DNA from: Dictyostelium discoideum
Lineage: Eukaryota
Direction: 5' to 3'
NCBI GenBank assembly: GCA_000004695.1
Contig: CM000154.2
Span: forward strand, 224,001 to 288,000
DNA: 64,000 nt
Shown here: positions 1 to 60,191 of the stretch, one piece after another
Numbering within the stretch: position 1 is the stretch's first letter
Layout of the letters: every line of letters starts with the position of its first letter
The notes under the pieces: model-generated
Databases searched by the model: none
What the model saw: only the letters and a program-made list of their open reading frames with translations
Told to the model about the DNA's origin: nothing
Program-made: the position numbers and the translations under genes

Positions 1-3000
1 CATTAAATAATAATAATAATATTTCACCATCATTATCATCGTCATCATCATCATTATTAAATACACCAAATAAAAGAAATTCAATTCAACTTTCAAAATC
101 AACTTCATTTGAACAACAAAATCAACAACAACAACAACAAAATTTATTATCACCAAATAGTTATAGAAATTCAATATCATTTAGTAAATCACCATCATTT
201 GAAGGTAGTCAATCAACTGGATCATCAAGATCAATATCACCAATTTCATCACCAATTAAAAATAGTACTACTGGCAATAGTAATTTATCAAAATCAACAT
301 CTTTTGAAAAGATAGAAGCTAGTAATACTACTAATAATAATACTATTATTATTGCAGAAGAGAGTAGAGTTATTGAAAAAATAGTCGAAAAGATAATTGA
401 AGTTGAAAAGATAGTAGAAGTTGAAAAGATAGTAGAAGTTGAAAAGATAGTAGAAGTTGAAAAGATAGTAGAAGTTGAAAAGATTGTTAAAGTTGATGAT
501 ATCGAAAAGCTAACAAATTTACAAGATCAATTAACTGAACAACAACAACAATATCAAGAGAAATCATTGAAATTGGTAAACTTGGAATTGGAATTACAAG
601 AAAAGAGTAATCAACTTGTTGATAAATCTAATCAACTTTCAACAATGCAAGCAACCAATTCAGAGTTAATGGAAAAGATTGGCGGATTAATGAATGATCT
701 AACCGATATTCCAACTCAAGATATTAAAGAGAAAGATGAGATAATTGCAAATCTAAAGATTGAGAGTGAAAAGAATTTAAAATGCTTTCAAGATGATTTC
801 AATGCTTTACAATCTCGATACAGTCTTACCATTGAGCAAACTAGTCAATTGCAAGATAGAATTAAGCAATTAATAAATGAATTACAAGAGAGGGATGATA
901 AATTCATTGAGTTTACAAACTCATCAAATCAATCATTGGCTGATAACCAACGTGTAATCGACCAATTAACCAATGAGAAACAATCAATAACTCTACAATT
1001 ACAAGATCAACAAGATATAAAAGAAAAGGAATTTCAATTTGAAAAACAACAATTATTAAGTCAAATTGATTCAATCACAACAAACATTCAAGAATATCAA
1101 GATAAATTCAATAATTTACAACAAGAATTCAATACTCAACAAACTTTAAATCAACAAGAAACTCATAGATTAACTCAACAATTATATCAAATAAATACAG
1201 ATTATAATGAAAAACAAACTCAATTACAATCGGAAATTAAAGATAATCAAACTATAAATGAACAATTAAATAAACAATTATCAGAAAAAGATAAAGAAAT
1301 TGAAAAACTTTCAAATCAACAAGAACAACAACAAGATGAAAAAATTAATAATCTTTTATTAGAAATTAAAGAAAAAGATTGTTTAATTGAAAGAATTAAT
1401 CAACAACTTTTAGAAAATATTGATTTAAATTCAAAATATCAACAATTACTTTTAGAATTTGAAAATTTTAAATTAAATTCATCAAAAGAAAAAGAAAATC
1501 AATTAAATGAATTACAAAGTAAACAAGATGAAAGATTTAATCAATTAAATGATGAAAAACTTGAAAAAGAAAAACAATTACAATCAATTGAAGATGAATT
1601 CAATCAATATAAACAACAACAATTAAGCTCAAATTCAAATATTGATCAACAATTACAATCTACTATTATTGAATTATCAGAATTAAAAGAACAAAAAGAA
1701 TTAAATGATTCAAAATTAATTGAAAAAGAAAAACAATTACAACAATTACAACAAGAATTTGACCAACTAAATGAAAAAAATCAAAAAGATCACCAAGATC
1801 AATTAGAATTACTTGAAAAACAATTAAAACAATTACAACAAGAATATGATCAATTAAATGAAACTAATCAATCAATTGAAAATCAATTAAATCAACAAAA
1901 TTTAATTAATAAAGAGAATTTAAATGAAAAAGAGCAAGAATTACTAAAATTACAAAATCAATTAAATCAACAAATTGAAAAGATTCAATTTGATCAACAA
2001 GAATTTTCAAAACAAAATTCAATTAATATTGAATTAGTAAATGAAAAAAATGAAAAATTAATTCAATTACAACAAGATTATGATCAATTAAAACAACAAA
2101 ATAGATCAAATGATGAAAAAGATGAAAATGATTTAATTGAAAAAGAAAATCAACTAAAGTCAATTCAAAATGAATTAAATCAATTAATTGAAAAGAATGA
2201 ATCTGATCATAAAGAACAACAATTAAAACAACAATCAATTGAAAATGATTTAATTGAAAAAGAGAATCAAATTCAACAATTACAATCACAATTAAATGAA
2301 CAAAGACAACAACAATCAAATCAGTTATCTGAGAAAGATCAACAATTGAATCAGTTAATTGAAAAGAATCAATTTGATCAAAAAGAACAACAATTAAAAC
2401 AACAATCAATTGAAAATGATTTGTTTGAAAAAGAGAATCAAATTCAACAATTGCAATCACAATTAAATGAACAAAGACAACAACAATCAAATCAGTTGTC
2501 TGAAAAAGATCAACAATTGAATCAATTAATTGAAAAGAATGAATCTGATCAAAAAGAACAACAATTAAAACAACAATCAATTGAAAATGATTTAATTGAA
2601 AAAGAGAATCAAATTCAACAATTACAATTACAATTAAATGAACAAAGACAACTACAATCTGAAGTATCAATTGATAATGATAAAATTTTAGAATTAGAAA
2701 AACAATTAAAACAATGTCAATCGGATTTATTGAAATTAAATGATGAAAAACAACAACAAGATAAACAATTACAAGATAAACAAATTGAATTTGATCAATT
2801 ACAATTAACTTTTAATCAATTTAAAAATGATAAAGATTCACAATTCATTCAATTACAAGATGATCAAAAACAACAATTACAATCAATCCAACAAGATTTA
2901 AATCAATTAAAACAAGAAAATCAAGAAAAAGAAAAACAACTCTCTGAAAAGGATGAAAAATTACAATCAATTCAATTTGAGAATCAAGAAAAAGAAAAAC

Positions 3001-4533
3001 AACTCTCTGAAAAGGATGAAAAGTTACAATCAATTCAACAAAATTTAAATCAATTAAATGATGAAAATCAAGAAAAAGTAAAACAATTTTCTGAAAAAGA
3101 CGAAAAGCTACAATCAATTCAACAAGATTTAAATCAATTAAAACAAGAAAATCAAGAAAAAGAAAAACAACTCTCTGAAAAGGATGAAAAGTTACAATCA
3201 ATTCAACAAGATTTAAATCAATTAAATGATGATCAAATTAAAAAAAATGAAAAATTAAAAGAAAAAGAAGAACAATTATTAAAATTACAACAAGACTTTA
3301 ATGATCAACAATCTCAACAATTAAAACAATTGGAAGAGAAATTATCTGAAAAAGAAAATCAATTACAACAATTAAAACAAGAGAATGAAATCAATCAATT
3401 GAATCAACAACAACAATCAAATGAAATTATTCAACAATTAAAAGATCAACTTTTAAAACAACAACAACAAGAACAACAAGAAAATAATAATGAAAAAGAA
3501 ATTGAAAGATTAATACAAGAGATTGAACAATTGAAACAACAACAAGAGATTGACCAATCGGAACTTAGTAATAAAGAGATTAAAATCCAAACTACTCAAC
3601 AAGAATTTGATCAACTCTCTCATAATAGATCAAAGGATCAATTACATTTACAACAATTACAACAAGAGTTGGATCAGTTGAAACAAAGTTTTGATGATCA
3701 AGATCACCAATTTAAGAAAGTAATTGATGAACGTTACAATCTTCAATTACAATTGGAACAATCAACTCTTTCAAATAATCAATTAGATCAATTATTAAAG
3801 GAGAAATTAAAACCATTGGAATTGGACTCCAATGAAAAACAAAAAACAATTGATGATTTACTTTCAAACATTTCAAATCTCCAAATTTCACTTCAAAATG
3901 ATAAAGATTTAATCTCTGAAAGAAATAATTCAATTAAAACTTTAGAATCACGTATTACTCAACAATTATCATTATTAGATGAAAAAGATAATTTAATTAA
4001 AGATTTACAACAACAAAAACAACAACAACAACAACCTCCAACTGCTTCATCATCACCATCATCATCACCATCATTATTATCCTCAACACCAACACCAAAA
4101 CCACAACGTCCAAATCAAATTGAAATTGATAGACTTGTAAATGAAATTGTAAATAGAAATCAAGATTTAATAAGAAAAAATAAAACCAAATTCTATAAAT
4201 TAGAAAATGGTGATTACATTGTAAATTCAATCATTTATAGATTATCTTTAGATGATGATAATGATTCTGATTTAATTGGTAAATATTAATATATATACAC
4301 ACATTATTAATAAATTATTTATTAACTAAATCCTATTTTTAAAATTTAATTTAGCACAAGAATATGAAAATGGTAATAGTACAACATTTGAGAAATCATT
4401 AAGAATTTTCCCATCAAAGAATACACGTCCAATATTCGATTGGAGAGCATTGTTCTTTATTGGTGCTGCTGTTTTAGCTATCTCTACTCTCTTTTCTTCT
4501 TCAAGACCAATCAAATATGAAAAACCAACTTAA
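1..4533 (+). CDS. Giant coiled-coil protein, 5' partial (begins upstream of window); exons 1..4278 and 4355..4533 joined; C-terminal tail anchor
   Basis: Frame 3 is open from nt 3 (Ser/Asn-rich, then EKIVEV x5, then >1200 aa of heptad-like Q/E/K/L-rich coiled coil). The track ORF 567..4289 is only the part after an internal TTG. The GKY-stop at 4287 coincides with a GTAAAT donor at 4279. A 76-nt AT-rich intron (4279..4354, ...tttag) joins in phase to exon 4355..4533. That exon encodes ...RALFFIGAAVLAISTLFSS-RPIKYEKPT*, a single C-terminal hydrophobic segment typical of a tail-anchored protein. Confidence 0.7.
2150..3230 (+). repeat. In-frame coding tandem repeats inside the coiled-coil gene: 3 x 171 bp (57-aa unit LIEKNESDQKEQQLKQQSIENDLIEKENQIQQLQSQLNEQRQQQSNQLSEKDQQLNQ, 2150..2660) and about 5 x 90-120 bp units (QEKEKQLSEKDEKLQSIQQDLNQLK, 2880..3230)
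   Basis: Near-identical nucleotide repeats seen directly. Minus-strand ORFs 2023..2670 and 2845..3201 are their antisense shadows. Confidence 0.85.
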
Positions 4534-4852: not shown

Positions 4853-5450
4853 TTAAAATGATATATAGCCTGAATCTTCACCAACTACAACAGTTTTATA
4901 TTCATGGTAAAATGAAATAAAAAACAAATAATATAATGTAACGCATGTAATTTCACTTAATGCACATAAATTATTATATTCTTTATAATTTGTACTTTGA
5001 ACTAAATAATTTAAATTTGATTAGATAAATAAAAAAAAATTAGTATTAATAAATTAATAATAATAATTATAATTATAAAAACTTACATATTAATATGGCA
5101 ACTGTATATAAAACTGATAGTATAATTCTAAAGATAAATAATTTTGGTGCTAAAATATTTAAATGTAAATTATAATCTAAAGTAGTTGAAATTATAATAT
5201 AAAATAAACCAAAGATGAAATAGATGGCACTGAAAACTAAATGAACATTTCTAATATAATGTTGTGGGAATGAAATTACTCCTAATAATCCAATTGATTG
5301 AATTAATGCAATCAATAGACAAACTACTGAAAATGTTGAAACTAATGAATGTGGACTACATTTTTTAATTTGTAATCTGTTATATTGAAATTTGACAATA
5401 TATAAACCAATTGAAAGTATACTTGAAATTGCTAATCCAAATGTTGCCAT
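4853..5450 (-). CDS. Hypothetical 4-TM membrane protein; exon 5087..5450 plus speculative 3' exon 4853..5001
   Basis: ORF 5073..5450 (MATFGLAISSILSIGLYIV..., four hydrophobic helices). A perfect GTAAGT donor (plus 5081..5086) overlaps the apparent stop. An acceptor ...tttag at 5002/5003 opens a 49-codon in-phase frame (FQSTNYKEYNNLCALSEITCVTLYYLFFISFYHEYKTVVVGEDSGYISF*), which is unusual in AT-rich DNA. A GA-rich (plus CT-rich) non-AT island at 5590..5700 lies 140-250 bp upstream of the ATG. Confidence 0.45.
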
Positions 5451-6144: not shown

Positions 6145-8443
6145 ATGTTTAGTTTAGGAAAATTGGTTAAAAAAGATGCTTTTTTTTATAGGTAAAAAAA
6201 TCTTCTTTTTTTTTTTTTTTTTAAAAATAAAATAAATAATAATAATATTGTACTAACATATTAATAAAAAAAAAAAAAAAAAAAAAAAAATTTCAAAATA
6301 ACCAACACACATTAATGATGATAATAATAACAATAATGATAATTATAATAATTATAACAATTAATTAATCAAATAATTAATAATATCTAGATATATAACA
6401 AATGTTAATAAAGATTTAAAAATTAAACCAATTACAAAGATATTAATTGCAAATAGAGGTGAAATTGCATGTCGTGTAATGAGAACAGCAAAATCAAAAG
6501 GTGTAAAAACCGTAGCAGTTTATAGTGAAGCAGATAAGAATTCATTACATGTTTCAATGGCAGATGAGAGTTATTTAATTGGACCAGCAGCAGCCAAAGA
6601 GAGTTATTTATGTGGAAATAAGATCATAGATGTAGCAAAGAGATCTGGAGCACAAGCAATTCATCCAGGTTATGGTTTCTTATCAGAGAATTCAGATTTT
6701 GCTGATCTCTGTGAGAGAGAAGGTATCATTTTCATTGGACCACCATCAGATGCAATCAAAGCAATGGGTAGCAAAAGTGCCTCAAAGGATATTATGATCA
6801 AAGCTGGCGTACCAACCATCCCAGGTTACCACGGTGAAGATCAGTCAATGAGTGTGTTGAAGAGTGAGGCTGCAAAGATTGGCTATCCAGTATTGATTAA
6901 AGCTGTTATGGGTGGTGGTGGTAAAGGTATGAGAATCGTTGAGAGAGAGGAGGATTTAGAGGACGGTGTTGAGTCCTCAAAGAGAGAGGCCACCGCATCC
7001 TTTGGTGATTCTAGAGTTTTGGTAGAAAAGTATTTAGTTCATCCAAGACATGTGGAGATTCAAGTTTTCGCCGATAGACATGGTAATTGTGTTCACCTCT
7101 TTGAGAGAGATTGTAGTGTACAAAGACGTCATCAAAAGATTATCGAAGAGGCACCAGCTCCACATCTCTCTGAGGAGCTTAGAAAGAAAATGGGTGATGC
7201 TGCAGTTGCCGCCGCCAAGGCTGTAGGTTACGTTGGTGCTGGTACCGTAGAATTCATTTTATCCGCTGATAATAGCTTCTTCTTTATGGAGATGAATACC
7301 CGTCTTCAAGTGGAGCATCCAATCACTGAAATGATCACCAAACAAGATTTAGTAGAATGGCAATTGAAGGTAGCCGAATCCCAAACACTCCCAATGGAGC
7401 AAGAACAATTGAAGATTCATGGTCACTCTTTCGAAGCTCGTATCTACGCAGAGAATCCAGATAGTGATTTCTTACCAGGTACAGGTAAATTAGCACATCT
7501 TTCAACACCAACACCATCCGATACTTTACGTGTTGAAACTGGTGTACGTCAAGGCGATGAAGTTAGCGTTTACTATGATCCAATGATTGCCAAATTGGTG
7601 GTATGGGATCAAGATAGAGAGAAGGCATTAAGATATTTAAGAAATGCTCTCGACGAGTACCATATCATTGGTCTCAATACAAACATCTCTTTCCTTAAGA
7701 GATTATCAACTCATCCTTCATTTATGGCTGGTGAAGTTGAAACTGGTTTCATCCCAATTCACAGAGAATCCTTAATGGCCCCACAAGCTCCAATGTCTGA
7801 TGATTCATTAGCATTGGCTGCCACAAGTTTACTCTTAAAAGAGATCACTCAACAAAAATCAAAAGAAGATCCAAACTCACCTTGGTCAAGTTTAGGTGGT
7901 TTCCGTATTAATCATAATTTAAAAAAACAAGTTAAATTCAATCAAAAAGATAATAAAGTTGTTGTTAATGTTGAATTCATTGGTGGTGGTGGTGCTGCTG
8001 CTAATGGTAAACATAACTTTAAAGTAACTTTAGATAATGGTAATGTCGTTGAAGTTTTAGATGCAAAATTAAATCAAAATAATGAAACTATTAGTGCTCA
8101 TGTAAATGGTAGATTCTATAATAACATTAAATCCGTCATTGTAAAGGATACTTTAACAATCTTTAATGAAGGTCAACAATACCAATTGGATATTCCTCAA
8201 GATGTTAAACCAAAAGGTGCTGATGGTGTATTGGGTTCTTTAGTTTCACCAATGCCTGGAAAAATCACTAAAGTTATGGTAAATGTTGGTGACATGGTTA
8301 AAAAGGGTCAACCAATCTTACTCATGGAAGCAATGAAAATGGAACATACTATTCGTTCTCCAATCGATGGTAAAGTTGAATCATTACCTTATAATGTTAA
8401 TGAAATCGTTGAGGATAAGAAAACTTTGGCTGTTATTGTTTAA
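6145..8443 (+). CDS. mccA: 3-methylcrotonyl-CoA carboxylase alpha subunit (biotin carboxylase plus biotinyl domain), mitochondrial; exons 6145..6191 and 6391..8443
   Basis: ORF 6479..8443 aligns closely with human MCCC1 as recalled from memory (KILIANRGEIACRVMRTAK..., GYGFLSEN, IIFIGPP, YHGEDQS, MIKAV.GGGGKGMRIV, FERDCSVQRRHQKIIEEAPAP, EMNTRLQVEHPVTEMIT, biotinylation motif AMKMEH). The frame is open upstream to 6377 with no Met. A short exon ATG 6145 (MFSLGKLVKKDAFFY-, K-rich presequence-like) ends at a GTAAAA donor at 6192. The ...tctag acceptor at 6389/6390 is in phase 2 and restores ...R YITNVNKDLKIKPITKILIANRGE. The 5' exon is inference only. Confidence 0.85.
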
Positions 8444-9304: not shown

Positions 9305-9611
9305 TAAAAAAATAAAAAAATTAAAATCAAATAAAAAAAAAAAAAAAAAAAAAATACATGATCATGGTCGTCATCAAAATATCTATATTTTTTTAATATT
9401 AATAATCAATATATTTAAATATAGTTTTTTTTTTATTTTTTATTTTTTTTTTTTATTTGATTTTTTTCCCAAAGAGTTTTTGGTTTATTTTTGTTTTTTT
9501 TTTTTATTTTTTTTAAATTTTTTTTTTTTTTTTTTTATTTTTTTTGAAATTTTTTTTTTTTTATAAAAAAATATAAACAAAATTGATATTATCTAACACA
9601 TAACAAATTCA

Positions 9612-9646
<35 letters not shown>

Positions 9647-9762
9647 GTATATAAAATATAAAATATAAATTTAAAATATAATAGAAATAAAAAAAAAAAA
9701 AAAAAAAAAAAATAGATAAAAAAAAAAAAAAAAAAAGAAATATATAGTTTAATTTAAAAGTA

Positions 9763-13274
<3,512 letters not shown>

Positions 13275-30726: not shown

Positions 30727-30799
30727 TGGAGAAGAAGGGTATCGATCCCTTTACCTCTCGCATGCTAAGCGAGCGCTCTACCATCTGAGCTACATCCCC
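30727..30799 (-). tRNA. tRNA-Ala (anticodon AGC), 73 nt, followed by a TTTTTT terminator
   Basis: Minus-strand sequence GGGGATGTAGCTCAGATGGTAGAGCGCTCGCTTAGCATGCGAGAGGTAAAGGGATCGATACCCTTCTTCTCCA folds as a cloverleaf: D-arm GCTC/GAGC, anticodon loop TTAGCAT, T-stem AAGGG/CCCTT. The acceptor stem has one T:T mismatch (positions 6:67) and one G:T pair. Confidence 0.7.
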
Positions 30800-44884: not shown

Positions 44885-44970
44885 TTGTAATTTTGACCAT
44901 AGATGAACAAGATTCGAACCAATGACTCTGGATACGAAGTTCAGGAGTTTGAATTTCAGCAAAAAAAAAA

Positions 44971-45043
44971 TGTCAAGTCAGAGGATCGAACTCTGGACCT
45001 TAGGATTATGAGACCTACGCTCTACCAACTGAGCCAACCTGAC
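44971..45043 (-). tRNA. tRNA-Met (anticodon CAU, elongator-like), 73 nt, poly-T terminator; the nearest ex-B-like motif is about 100 nt downstream (about 44850)
   Basis: Minus strand GTCAGGTTGGCTCAGTTGGTAGAGCGTAGGTCTCATAATCCTAAGGTCCAGAGTTCGATCCTCTGACTTGACA. Acceptor GTCAGGT/ACTTGAC pairs with one G:T. T-arm CAGAG/TTCGATC/CTCTG. Anticodon loop CTCATAA. The A10 terminator is at 44961..44970. Confidence 0.8.
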
Positions 45044-45156
45044 ATGTTGATGTTTTTGAAAAAAATTTGCACGATAACATTTTACATCAGATCGAAAAAA
45101 ACAAACAACAACAACAATCTCTTTTTTTGATTATTTCATTTTTCATATAAAAAAGA

Positions 45157-54610: not shown

Positions 54611-54684
54611 TGCTCGATGCAGGGATCGAACCTGCGACCGTGGCGTTATTAGCACCACGCTCTGCCGACTGAGCTAATCGAGCC
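54611..54684 (-). tRNA. tRNA-Ile (anticodon AAU), 74 nt
   Basis: Minus strand GGCTCGATTAGCTCAGTCGGCAGAGCGTGGTGCTAATAACGCCACGGTCGCAGGTTCGATCCCTGCATCGAGCA. Acceptor GGCTCGA/TCGAGCC. Anticodon stem TGGTG/CGCCA with loop CTAATAA. T-arm GCAGG/TTCGATC/CCTGC. Near-identical in anticodon and T arms to metazoan tRNA-Ile-AAT. Confidence 0.85.
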
Positions 54685-60120: not shown

Positions 60121-60191
60121 GCGTATGTGGTCTAGTGGTATGATGCATCCCTGCCACGGATGCGAACTGGGTTCGATTCCCAGCATACGCA
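60121..60191 (+). tRNA. tRNA-Gly (anticodon GCC), 71 nt; ex-B box GAACGTAGGTTCAATTCCC at 60225..60243
   Basis: GCGTATGTGGTCTAGTGGTATGATGCATCCCTGCCACGGATGCGAACTGGGTTCGATTCCCAGCATACGCA. Acceptor GCGTATG/CATACGC. Anticodon stem CATCC/GGATG with loop CTGCCAC. T-arm CTGGG/TTCGATT/CCCAG. The same layout as metazoan tRNA-Gly-GCC. Confidence 0.85.

Follow-up and report, generated by a model that had tools for sequence, protein, structure and literature searches.

The 3' part of Dictyostelium discoideum abpD: a short terminal exon completes the membrane-association domain of interaptin

INTRODUCTION

In the golgins giantin, golgin-84, and CASP, a long cytosolic coiled coil is carried on one C-terminal transmembrane (TM) helix, a layout also seen in interaptin, the product of the Dictyostelium discoideum gene abpD. 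With the nesprins, interaptin has in common an N-terminal CH-CH unit, a very long rod, a single C-terminal TM helix, a short luminal tail, and a location at the nuclear envelope; with the WIPs, it shares a coiled coil, a TM segment, and a luminal tail of ~9 to 13 residues with a penultimate proline and a terminal threonine or serine. To our knowledge, the D. discoideum genome contains no recognizable KASH protein. Here, we report on a stretch of 64,000 nucleotides (nt) of D. discoideum DNA (GenBank assembly GCA_000004695.1, contig CM000154.2, positions 224,001 to 288,000 of the forward strand), referred to below as the window and numbered from its first nucleotide. With a probability of about 0.97, positions 3 to 4533 of the window represent the 3' part of abpD.

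Interaptin was described in 1998 by Rivero et al. (J Cell Biol 142:735; PMC2148174; GenBank accession number AF057019). The protein begins with an alpha-actinin-type CH-CH actin-binding domain (Met-1 to Leu-255), which binds F-actin, continues with a rod (Lys-417 to Gln-1597; 22.5% Q, 14.3% L, 12.7% E, 10.9% K, and 9.7% N), and ends in a membrane-association domain (MAD; Asn-1624 to Thr-1737) (PMC2148174). The first abpD intron measures 417 bp, and the second interrupts the GCA codon of Ala-1679, with boundaries that were verified by cDNA clone C5 (PMC2148174). The native 200- and 160-kD forms sediment with membranes, resist extraction both with 1 M KCl and with 0.1 M NaOH, and dissolve in Triton X-100; GFP fused to the segment spanning Glu-1441 through the C terminus colocalizes with PDI, in the endoplasmic reticulum (ER) and nuclear envelope, rather than with V-ATPase compartments (PMC2148174). 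Later work has used interaptin to mark the ER and has treated it as a protein of the outer nuclear membrane.

RESULTS

Like other Dictyostelium DNA, the window is AT rich, with poly-Q and poly-N coding tracts. The frame that we assign to abpD is open from window position 3 and runs for 1428 codons up to an in-frame stop; the 5' end of the gene is therefore cut by the window edge. The CH-CH actin-binding domain and the first intron lie upstream of position 1, the window begins at about Leu-255, and the portion covered amounts to the 3' four-fifths of the gene (Table 1). A preliminary description of the region had listed a 1240-amino-acid (aa) open reading frame (ORF; 567-4289), which turned out to be an artifact of starting at the first TTG.

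The identification as abpD follows from the agreement of several published features with the window: residue numbering, rod composition, repeats, a nonpolar run, the distance to the polyadenylation signal, and a carboxylase neighbor. Counted back from the C terminus, Gln-1597, Asn-1624, Ala-1679, and Thr-1737 are in register with the published numbers, and the composition of the rod encoded by the window (22.5% Q, 14.3% L, 12.7% E, 10.8% K, and 9.7% N) equals the published one for Q, L, E, and N. The internal repeats described below correspond to a 179-residue stretch of near-identical 57-residue repeats and a 117-residue stretch of near-identical 28-residue repeats (PMC2148174). Interaptin was reported to contain one stretch of 12 consecutive nonpolar residues (PMC2148174), and the sole such run in the window product is ALFFIGAAVLAI. 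Finally, the published polyadenylation signal, 115 bp past the stop, agrees with an AATAAA at 116 nt on the plus strand, and the ORF with similarity to carboxylases that was reported downstream of abpD (PMC2148174) agrees with an ORF at 6479-8443 containing biotin-carboxylase Pfam domains.

Table 1. Positions of abpD features and of other genes in the window
Feature	Position	Strand	Remarks
abpD large middle exon	3..4278	+	~Leu-255 to first base of Ala-1679; frame open from position 3
18-bp tandem array (VEKIVE), ~6 copies	384..491	+	TRF, 6.3 copies at 93%
Coiled-coil rod	489..4034	+	published as Lys-417 to Gln-1597
171-bp (57-aa) repeat, three tandem copies that keep codon register	2166..2678	+	third unit diverges in last ~9 codons
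84-bp (28-aa) repeat family	2871..3233	+	partial unit, one 63-bp short unit, three full units
MAD	4113..4530	+	Asn-1624 to Thr-1737, split by intron 2
abpD intron 2	4279..4354	+	76 nt, phase 1, GTAAAT...TTTAG, 10.5% GC; holds K-Y-stop readthrough codons and AATAAA
62-aa TTG-initiated ORF	4326..4514	-	no gene; shadow frame antisense to the terminal exon
abpD terminal exon	4355..4533	+	last two bases of Ala-1679, 58 codons, TAA at 4531-4533
Predicted TM helix ALFFIGAAVLAISTLF	4447..4494	+	residues 1710-1725; Arg on each side; contains published 12-residue nonpolar run
12-residue tail SSSRPIKYEKPT	4495..4530	+	predicted luminal; last five residues, YEKPT, at 4516-4530
Polyadenylation signal AATAAA	4649..4654	+	116 nt past stop
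Frag1/DRAM/Sfk1 family 125-aa TM-rich ORF	5073-5450	-	Pfam E = 1.7e-11; probably extends to ~4860 and ~5760
Ankyrin-repeat protein ORF	9763-11265
RabGAP-TBC protein ORF	11506-13245
tRNA Ala-AGC	30727-30799
tRNA Met-CAT	44970-45044
tRNA Ile-AAT	54611-54683
tRNA Gly-GCC	60121-60191

The large exon ends within the codons GGT AAA TAT TAA (4278-4289), with the GT of a GTAAAT donor at 4279-4280. Splicing from 4278 to 4355, directly after TTTAG, is in frame and in phase 1, and the split codon (G/CA) encodes alanine; it is followed by 58 codons ending in Thr-1737, in agreement with the published structure (PMC2148174), and the spliced window product amounts to 1484 residues. The terminal-exon structure was thus already known and is re-derived here. 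The same junction, with exactly the tail that we obtain, had been proposed in the preliminary description, which had also placed the apparent stop inside the GTAAAT donor; the donor is indeed found and the stop does lie within the intron, but 3 nt past the hexamer and 8 nt into the intron. The checks by splice junction and by GFP localization that had been suggested along with it had been answered by the 1998 work, in which clone C5 confirms the intron boundaries (PMC2148174).

Composition sets the terminal exon (31.8% GC) apart from the intron (10.5%) and from the spacer downstream of the exon (12.3%). A run of 58 open codons was found in 1.1% of composition-matched shuffles; since such runs also start at ~6% of the positions in local homopolymer-rich (poly-A/T-rich) spacers, the exon would have been suggestive, not decisive, had the letters of the window been the sole evidence. 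The intron itself contains an AATAAA, at 4309-4314, and a transcript retaining the intron would encode a soluble protein ending in ...DLIGKY, in which the anchor is missing and the cytosolic module incomplete; such a transcript may exist as a minor isoform. As for the 62-aa minus-strand ORF across the same DNA, which had been remarked upon as an assignment of the exon to the wrong strand, the ORF exists, but "wrong strand" merely describes a mechanical shadow: it reads the exon antisense and in register, with a local codon-usage score of 13.4 bits versus 26.7 for the plus frame.

A number of points weigh against the identification as abpD. It was judged against the published text (PMC2148174) rather than by alignment to AF057019, and the actin-binding domain lies outside the window and is therefore seen only in the publication. 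Two numerical mismatches were also found. Intron 2, printed as 82 bp, comes to 76 nt in the window. Another in-frame AG follows 6 nt farther on (TTTAG/CACAAG/, window 4353-4360) and would make exactly 82 nt, and use of this acceptor would turn the split codon into GAA (Glu) and remove Ala-Gln. The printed length may thus reflect a count to the second AG, a strain difference of 6 nt in a TA/CA-rich intron, or the use of both acceptors; we attribute the mismatch to polymorphism or to a difference in counting and do not take it as evidence against abpD. Furthermore, the numbering of Leu-255, Lys-417, and Glu-1441 is off by one residue relative to that of the C-terminal landmarks, so that the window allele carries an additional codon somewhere from residue 1441 to residue 1624. 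The corresponding region (window ~3560-4112) contains CAA/ACA and Ser/Pro triplet tracts (TRF arrays 4007-4035 and 4047-4074), and the implied length of interaptin is 1738 residues for the window allele versus 1737 as published. Strain polymorphism in simple-sequence tracts could account for both the extra codon and the intron length.

According to the gene structure described above, removal of the 76-nt intron, which splits Ala-1679, eliminates the in-frame stop and adds 58 codons; these first complete a small predicted cytosolic domain and then supply one TM helix and a 12-residue luminal tail. The helix, ALFFIGAAVLAISTLF, is the only hydrophobic segment among the 1484 residues (19-mer Kyte-Doolittle value of 1.89, with P = 0.0007 when the residues of the tail were shuffled), and no second 15-mer with a value above 1.6 was found anywhere in the window product, in line with the single hydrophobic helix near the C terminus that the preliminary description had reported. 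The N terminus missing from the window is, by the published account, a cytosolic actin-binding domain (PMC2148174). As the helix ends 12 residues from the C terminus, it falls within the range that defines tail anchors (a single helix within ~30 residues of the end). Because of this position, and because the product has no other hydrophobic segment, we infer that interaptin is probably a post-translationally inserted, tail-anchored (type IV) protein. That the terminal exon carries the membrane anchor, also part of the earlier proposal, is borne out by the nuclear-envelope and ER localization of the GFP-tail fusion and by the alkali resistance of the native protein (PMC2148174). Interaptin consists of three parts, namely, the actin-binding domain, a coiled-coil rod of ~1180 residues with recent internal duplications, and the C-terminal MAD; with the rod and the actin-binding domain predicted to face the cytosol, it would link the surfaces of the ER and outer nuclear membrane to F-actin.

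Only two prolines and two glycines occur among the 1181 residues of the rod, in which a hydrophobic periodicity of 3.5 residues is enriched. The three 171-bp repeats noticed before are present; their units are identical at 151-156 of 171 nt in codon register and are 90-94% identical in the best nucleotide register. A second family, earlier put at 90-120 bp, actually consists of units of 84 bp, one of them shortened to 63 bp, and 82 of 84 nt are shared by the units at 2982 and 3150. That the interaptin repeats are probable internal duplications had already been reported (PMC2148174). As to the earlier suggestion that they may vary in copy number, total length differs by one codon between the window allele and the sequence in print, and repeat copy number is therefore equal in the two sequences compared. 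Overlooked in the earlier inventory was an array of VEKIVE units, four central copies of which are identical, located in the linker directly before the rod. This array, which is not mentioned in the accessible part of the publication (PMC2148174), is the repeat most likely to vary in copy number.

Database searches yielded only one genuine relative of the tail. In interpreting the negative results that follow, it should be considered that the protein collections searched apparently lacked the annotated proteins of D. discoideum, as interaptin itself was not returned by any search; the absence of homologs for the window is to be read accordingly. Using the 120-residue tail as the query (HMMER, 1.84 billion representatives), the only genuine match was a 125-aa D. 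purpureum protein annotated as "hypothetical" (XP_003294493.1), which aligns with the interaptin tail from end to end with 34-37% identity (BLASTP E = 9e-20). Two blocks are kept in both proteins, K.YKL..GDYI.NSI.Y on the cytosolic side and YEKPT at the extreme C terminus, while the TM and juxtamembrane residues have diverged. The other three of the four matches from the sensitive representative search, an axolotl mucin-5AC-like protein (15 stretches), a bacterial repeat protein, and a low-complexity translation, were dismissed as weak matches added up across internal repeats; a search of PDB sequences with the tail returned only CodY (E = 1), which was dismissed as noise. No further member was found with a two-sequence profile of the tail, no second copy of the tail domain was detected by tblastn in the 64-kb window, no match was obtained with the C-terminal 204 aa of the spliced product as the query, and neither the whole window product nor the tail matched Pfam. 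An exact-match look-up of the neighboring ORFs returned nothing except a 2.2-kb read-assembly contig.

The D. purpureum ORF (10001-10378 of the examined stretch of GL871506.1) runs without interruption, lacking an intron at the corresponding Ala codon, and starts 730 nt past an unrelated gene for a TIG/EGF-like secreted protein. No similarity between interaptin and this locus was found upstream of the tail domain. The ~600 nt preceding the ORF (9398-10000; 26% GC), which start 130 nt past the stop of the secreted-protein gene, are coding-like and coiled-coil-like and contain four frame changes. These changes could be assembly errors in the draft of a small scaffold or signs that a truncated interaptin-like gene has decayed.

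Based on the two-sequence alignment, the cytosolic 87 residues were modeled (pLDDT, 80.8; pTM, 0.71) as five strands together with two helices, one long and one short, with residues from both exons contributing to the predicted domain. In a structure comparison, this model resembled the GAR domains of ACF7 (5ve9_C; score, 6.4; 2.6 A; 65/74 residues; 11% identity), microtubule-bound GAS2 (9kbw_A; 6.2; 2.5 A; 65/72; 22%), and Gas2 as determined by NMR (1v5r_A; 6.0; 3.3 A; 70/97; 19%). The stretch KFYKLENGDYIV is reminiscent of the Gas2/GAR hairpin.

At the sequence level, every test of GAR homology failed. No GAR match came from Pfam, from the sequences in PDB, or from Foldseek with an initial model of poor quality; Foldseek on the good model placed no GAR chain in the top 50, and the Pfam GAS2 family (PF02187) did not match the module at E <= 10. 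An hhalign comparison of the module with GAR reached a probability of 0.1, BLASTP found nothing, and an unfiltered HMM built from 23 GAR sequences scored -0.5 bits, within the range of shuffles. A Smith-Waterman alignment of the module with GAS2 reached only P = 0.03, yet in the expected register. The module contains no Cys or Trp, so that the zinc-binding cysteines are missing, has AQEYENGNS where GAR has its VRVGGGW G-hairpin, and carries a net charge of -4 versus +5 in GAS2-GAR. Moreover, the GAS2 residues that contact microtubules, R252, G255, W257, and K266 (PMC12084551), are not conserved in interaptin. Microtubule binding by the canonical GAR mechanism is unlikely. Unlike in any of the GAR proteins cited (the GAS2 family and spectraplakins), the module in interaptin is followed by a TM helix. 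Proteins combining CH and GAS2 domains do occur in Amoebozoa; no link between interaptin and GAR was found in the searchable literature. We regard the likeness as a predicted resemblance at the level of the fold, with homology unproven.

Immediately downstream of abpD, the only neighbor described in the 1998 study is the carboxylase gene (PMC2148174). Between the two genes lies the Frag1/DRAM/Sfk1 family ORF, which ends at a GTAAGT donor and is therefore one exon of a spliced gene. The ATG at 6479 of the 3-methylcrotonyl-CoA-carboxylase-like ORF is an internal methionine (...ANRGEIACRV-M-RTAK); the true start likely lies in a mini-exon of 16 codons (6146-6192), after which an AT-rich intron of ~200 nt extends to about 6390. 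Farther downstream, we noted ORFs for an ankyrin-repeat protein and a RabGAP-TBC protein, and four tRNA genes are scattered among the protein-coding genes of the window (Table 1).

DISCUSSION

Two readings of the locus that depart from a tail-anchored interaptin at the ER and nuclear envelope receive little credit. It could be supposed that the unspliced product is the real one, a soluble protein ending in ...DLIGKY that is polyadenylated from the AATAAA at 4309 and followed by a gene on the minus strand: the in-frame stop lies just inside the intron, the polyadenylation signal is likewise intronic, and a 62-aa ORF is indeed present on the other strand. We consider this practically negligible as the main product, given the cDNA-confirmed splice, the integral membrane behavior of the protein, and the membrane targeting of its C-terminal fragment (PMC2148174); the minus-strand ORF, for its part, is started by a TTG, occupies an antisense shadow frame, and has a lower codon-usage score, and the predicted cytosolic domain draws on residues from both exons. 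Hardly more probable is a golgin-like protein or vesicle tether, tail-anchored in Golgi membranes, as the preliminary description had labeled the gene. A long coiled coil with a C-terminal TM helix would fit, as would a "Golgi-like" component in the staining with antibody and with GFP-MAD (PMC2148174). That label is contradicted by colocalization with the ER marker PDI and with the nuclear envelope (PMC2148174), by the lack of a golgin, GRIP, or GRAB signature or any other match in Pfam, and by the later literature, in which interaptin is an ER and outer-nuclear-membrane, nesprin-like protein; what separates it from tail-anchored golgins is its actin-binding domain and its residence in the ER and nuclear envelope. 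The preliminary description is thus partly supported, its reading of the gene structure being correct and its family label wrong.

In layout, interaptin is an actin-binding, nesprin-like protein, which differs from the nesprins in that its rod is a coiled coil and not an array of spectrin repeats, its tail lacks PPPX, and it is reported not to bind Sun1. Whether the luminal YEKPT terminus nevertheless makes interaptin a KASH-like protein was weighed as well, and we judge this rather unlikely. Its C-terminal TM helix is followed by a 12-residue tail with a penultimate proline and a terminal threonine, comparable in length to the tails of WIP1, ZYG-12B, and KDP-1; a paper on plant KASH proteins aligns the WIP-type tail with other short tails, with a conserved penultimate proline and a terminal Ser/Thr. 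The YEKPT motif is kept unchanged in the one relative that could be detected, in spite of divergence at the TM and juxtamembrane residues, and the order of actin-binding domain, rod, and TM helix resembles that of nesprins. On the other hand, the tail ends in EKPT, with a lysine before the proline, and therefore carries neither the PPPX of animals nor the hydrophobic-VPT motif of plants, with which WIPs end, and SUN dependence has been shown for WIPs. Three reviews describe interaptin as having no recognizable KASH domain and no Sun1 binding, with a Sun1 staining pattern that differs from its own; GFP-MAD is distributed over the entire ER (PMC2148174), and the conservation of YEKPT is seen in two sequences. 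A broader proposal, to which we would give only slightly more weight and which is still doubtful, is that the MAD combines a degenerate GAR/Gas2-like fold encoded by two exons with a lineage-specific, KASH-like YEKPT docking motif, which would make interaptin a membrane-anchored relative of the cytolinkers composed of CH, rod, and GAR domains, with the cassette standing alone in D. purpureum.

For the identification of the locus as abpD, the practical value of the analysis lies in its use as a check: a reading of the sequence without other data recovers a cDNA-verified terminal micro-exon that was missed by a bacterial-style ORF list. The same failure of the list is seen in both neighbors, with the Frag1/DRAM gene split into exons and the start of the carboxylase probably residing in a mini-exon. 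The D. purpureum relative with its YEKPT terminus and the GAR-like fold are unpublished side leads of low probability, both weakly supported. If true, the YEKPT terminus and the cytolinker-type domain would bear on what interaptin does at the nuclear envelope, and the conserved luminal terminus and the membrane-adjacent domain would offer concrete, cheap mutants.

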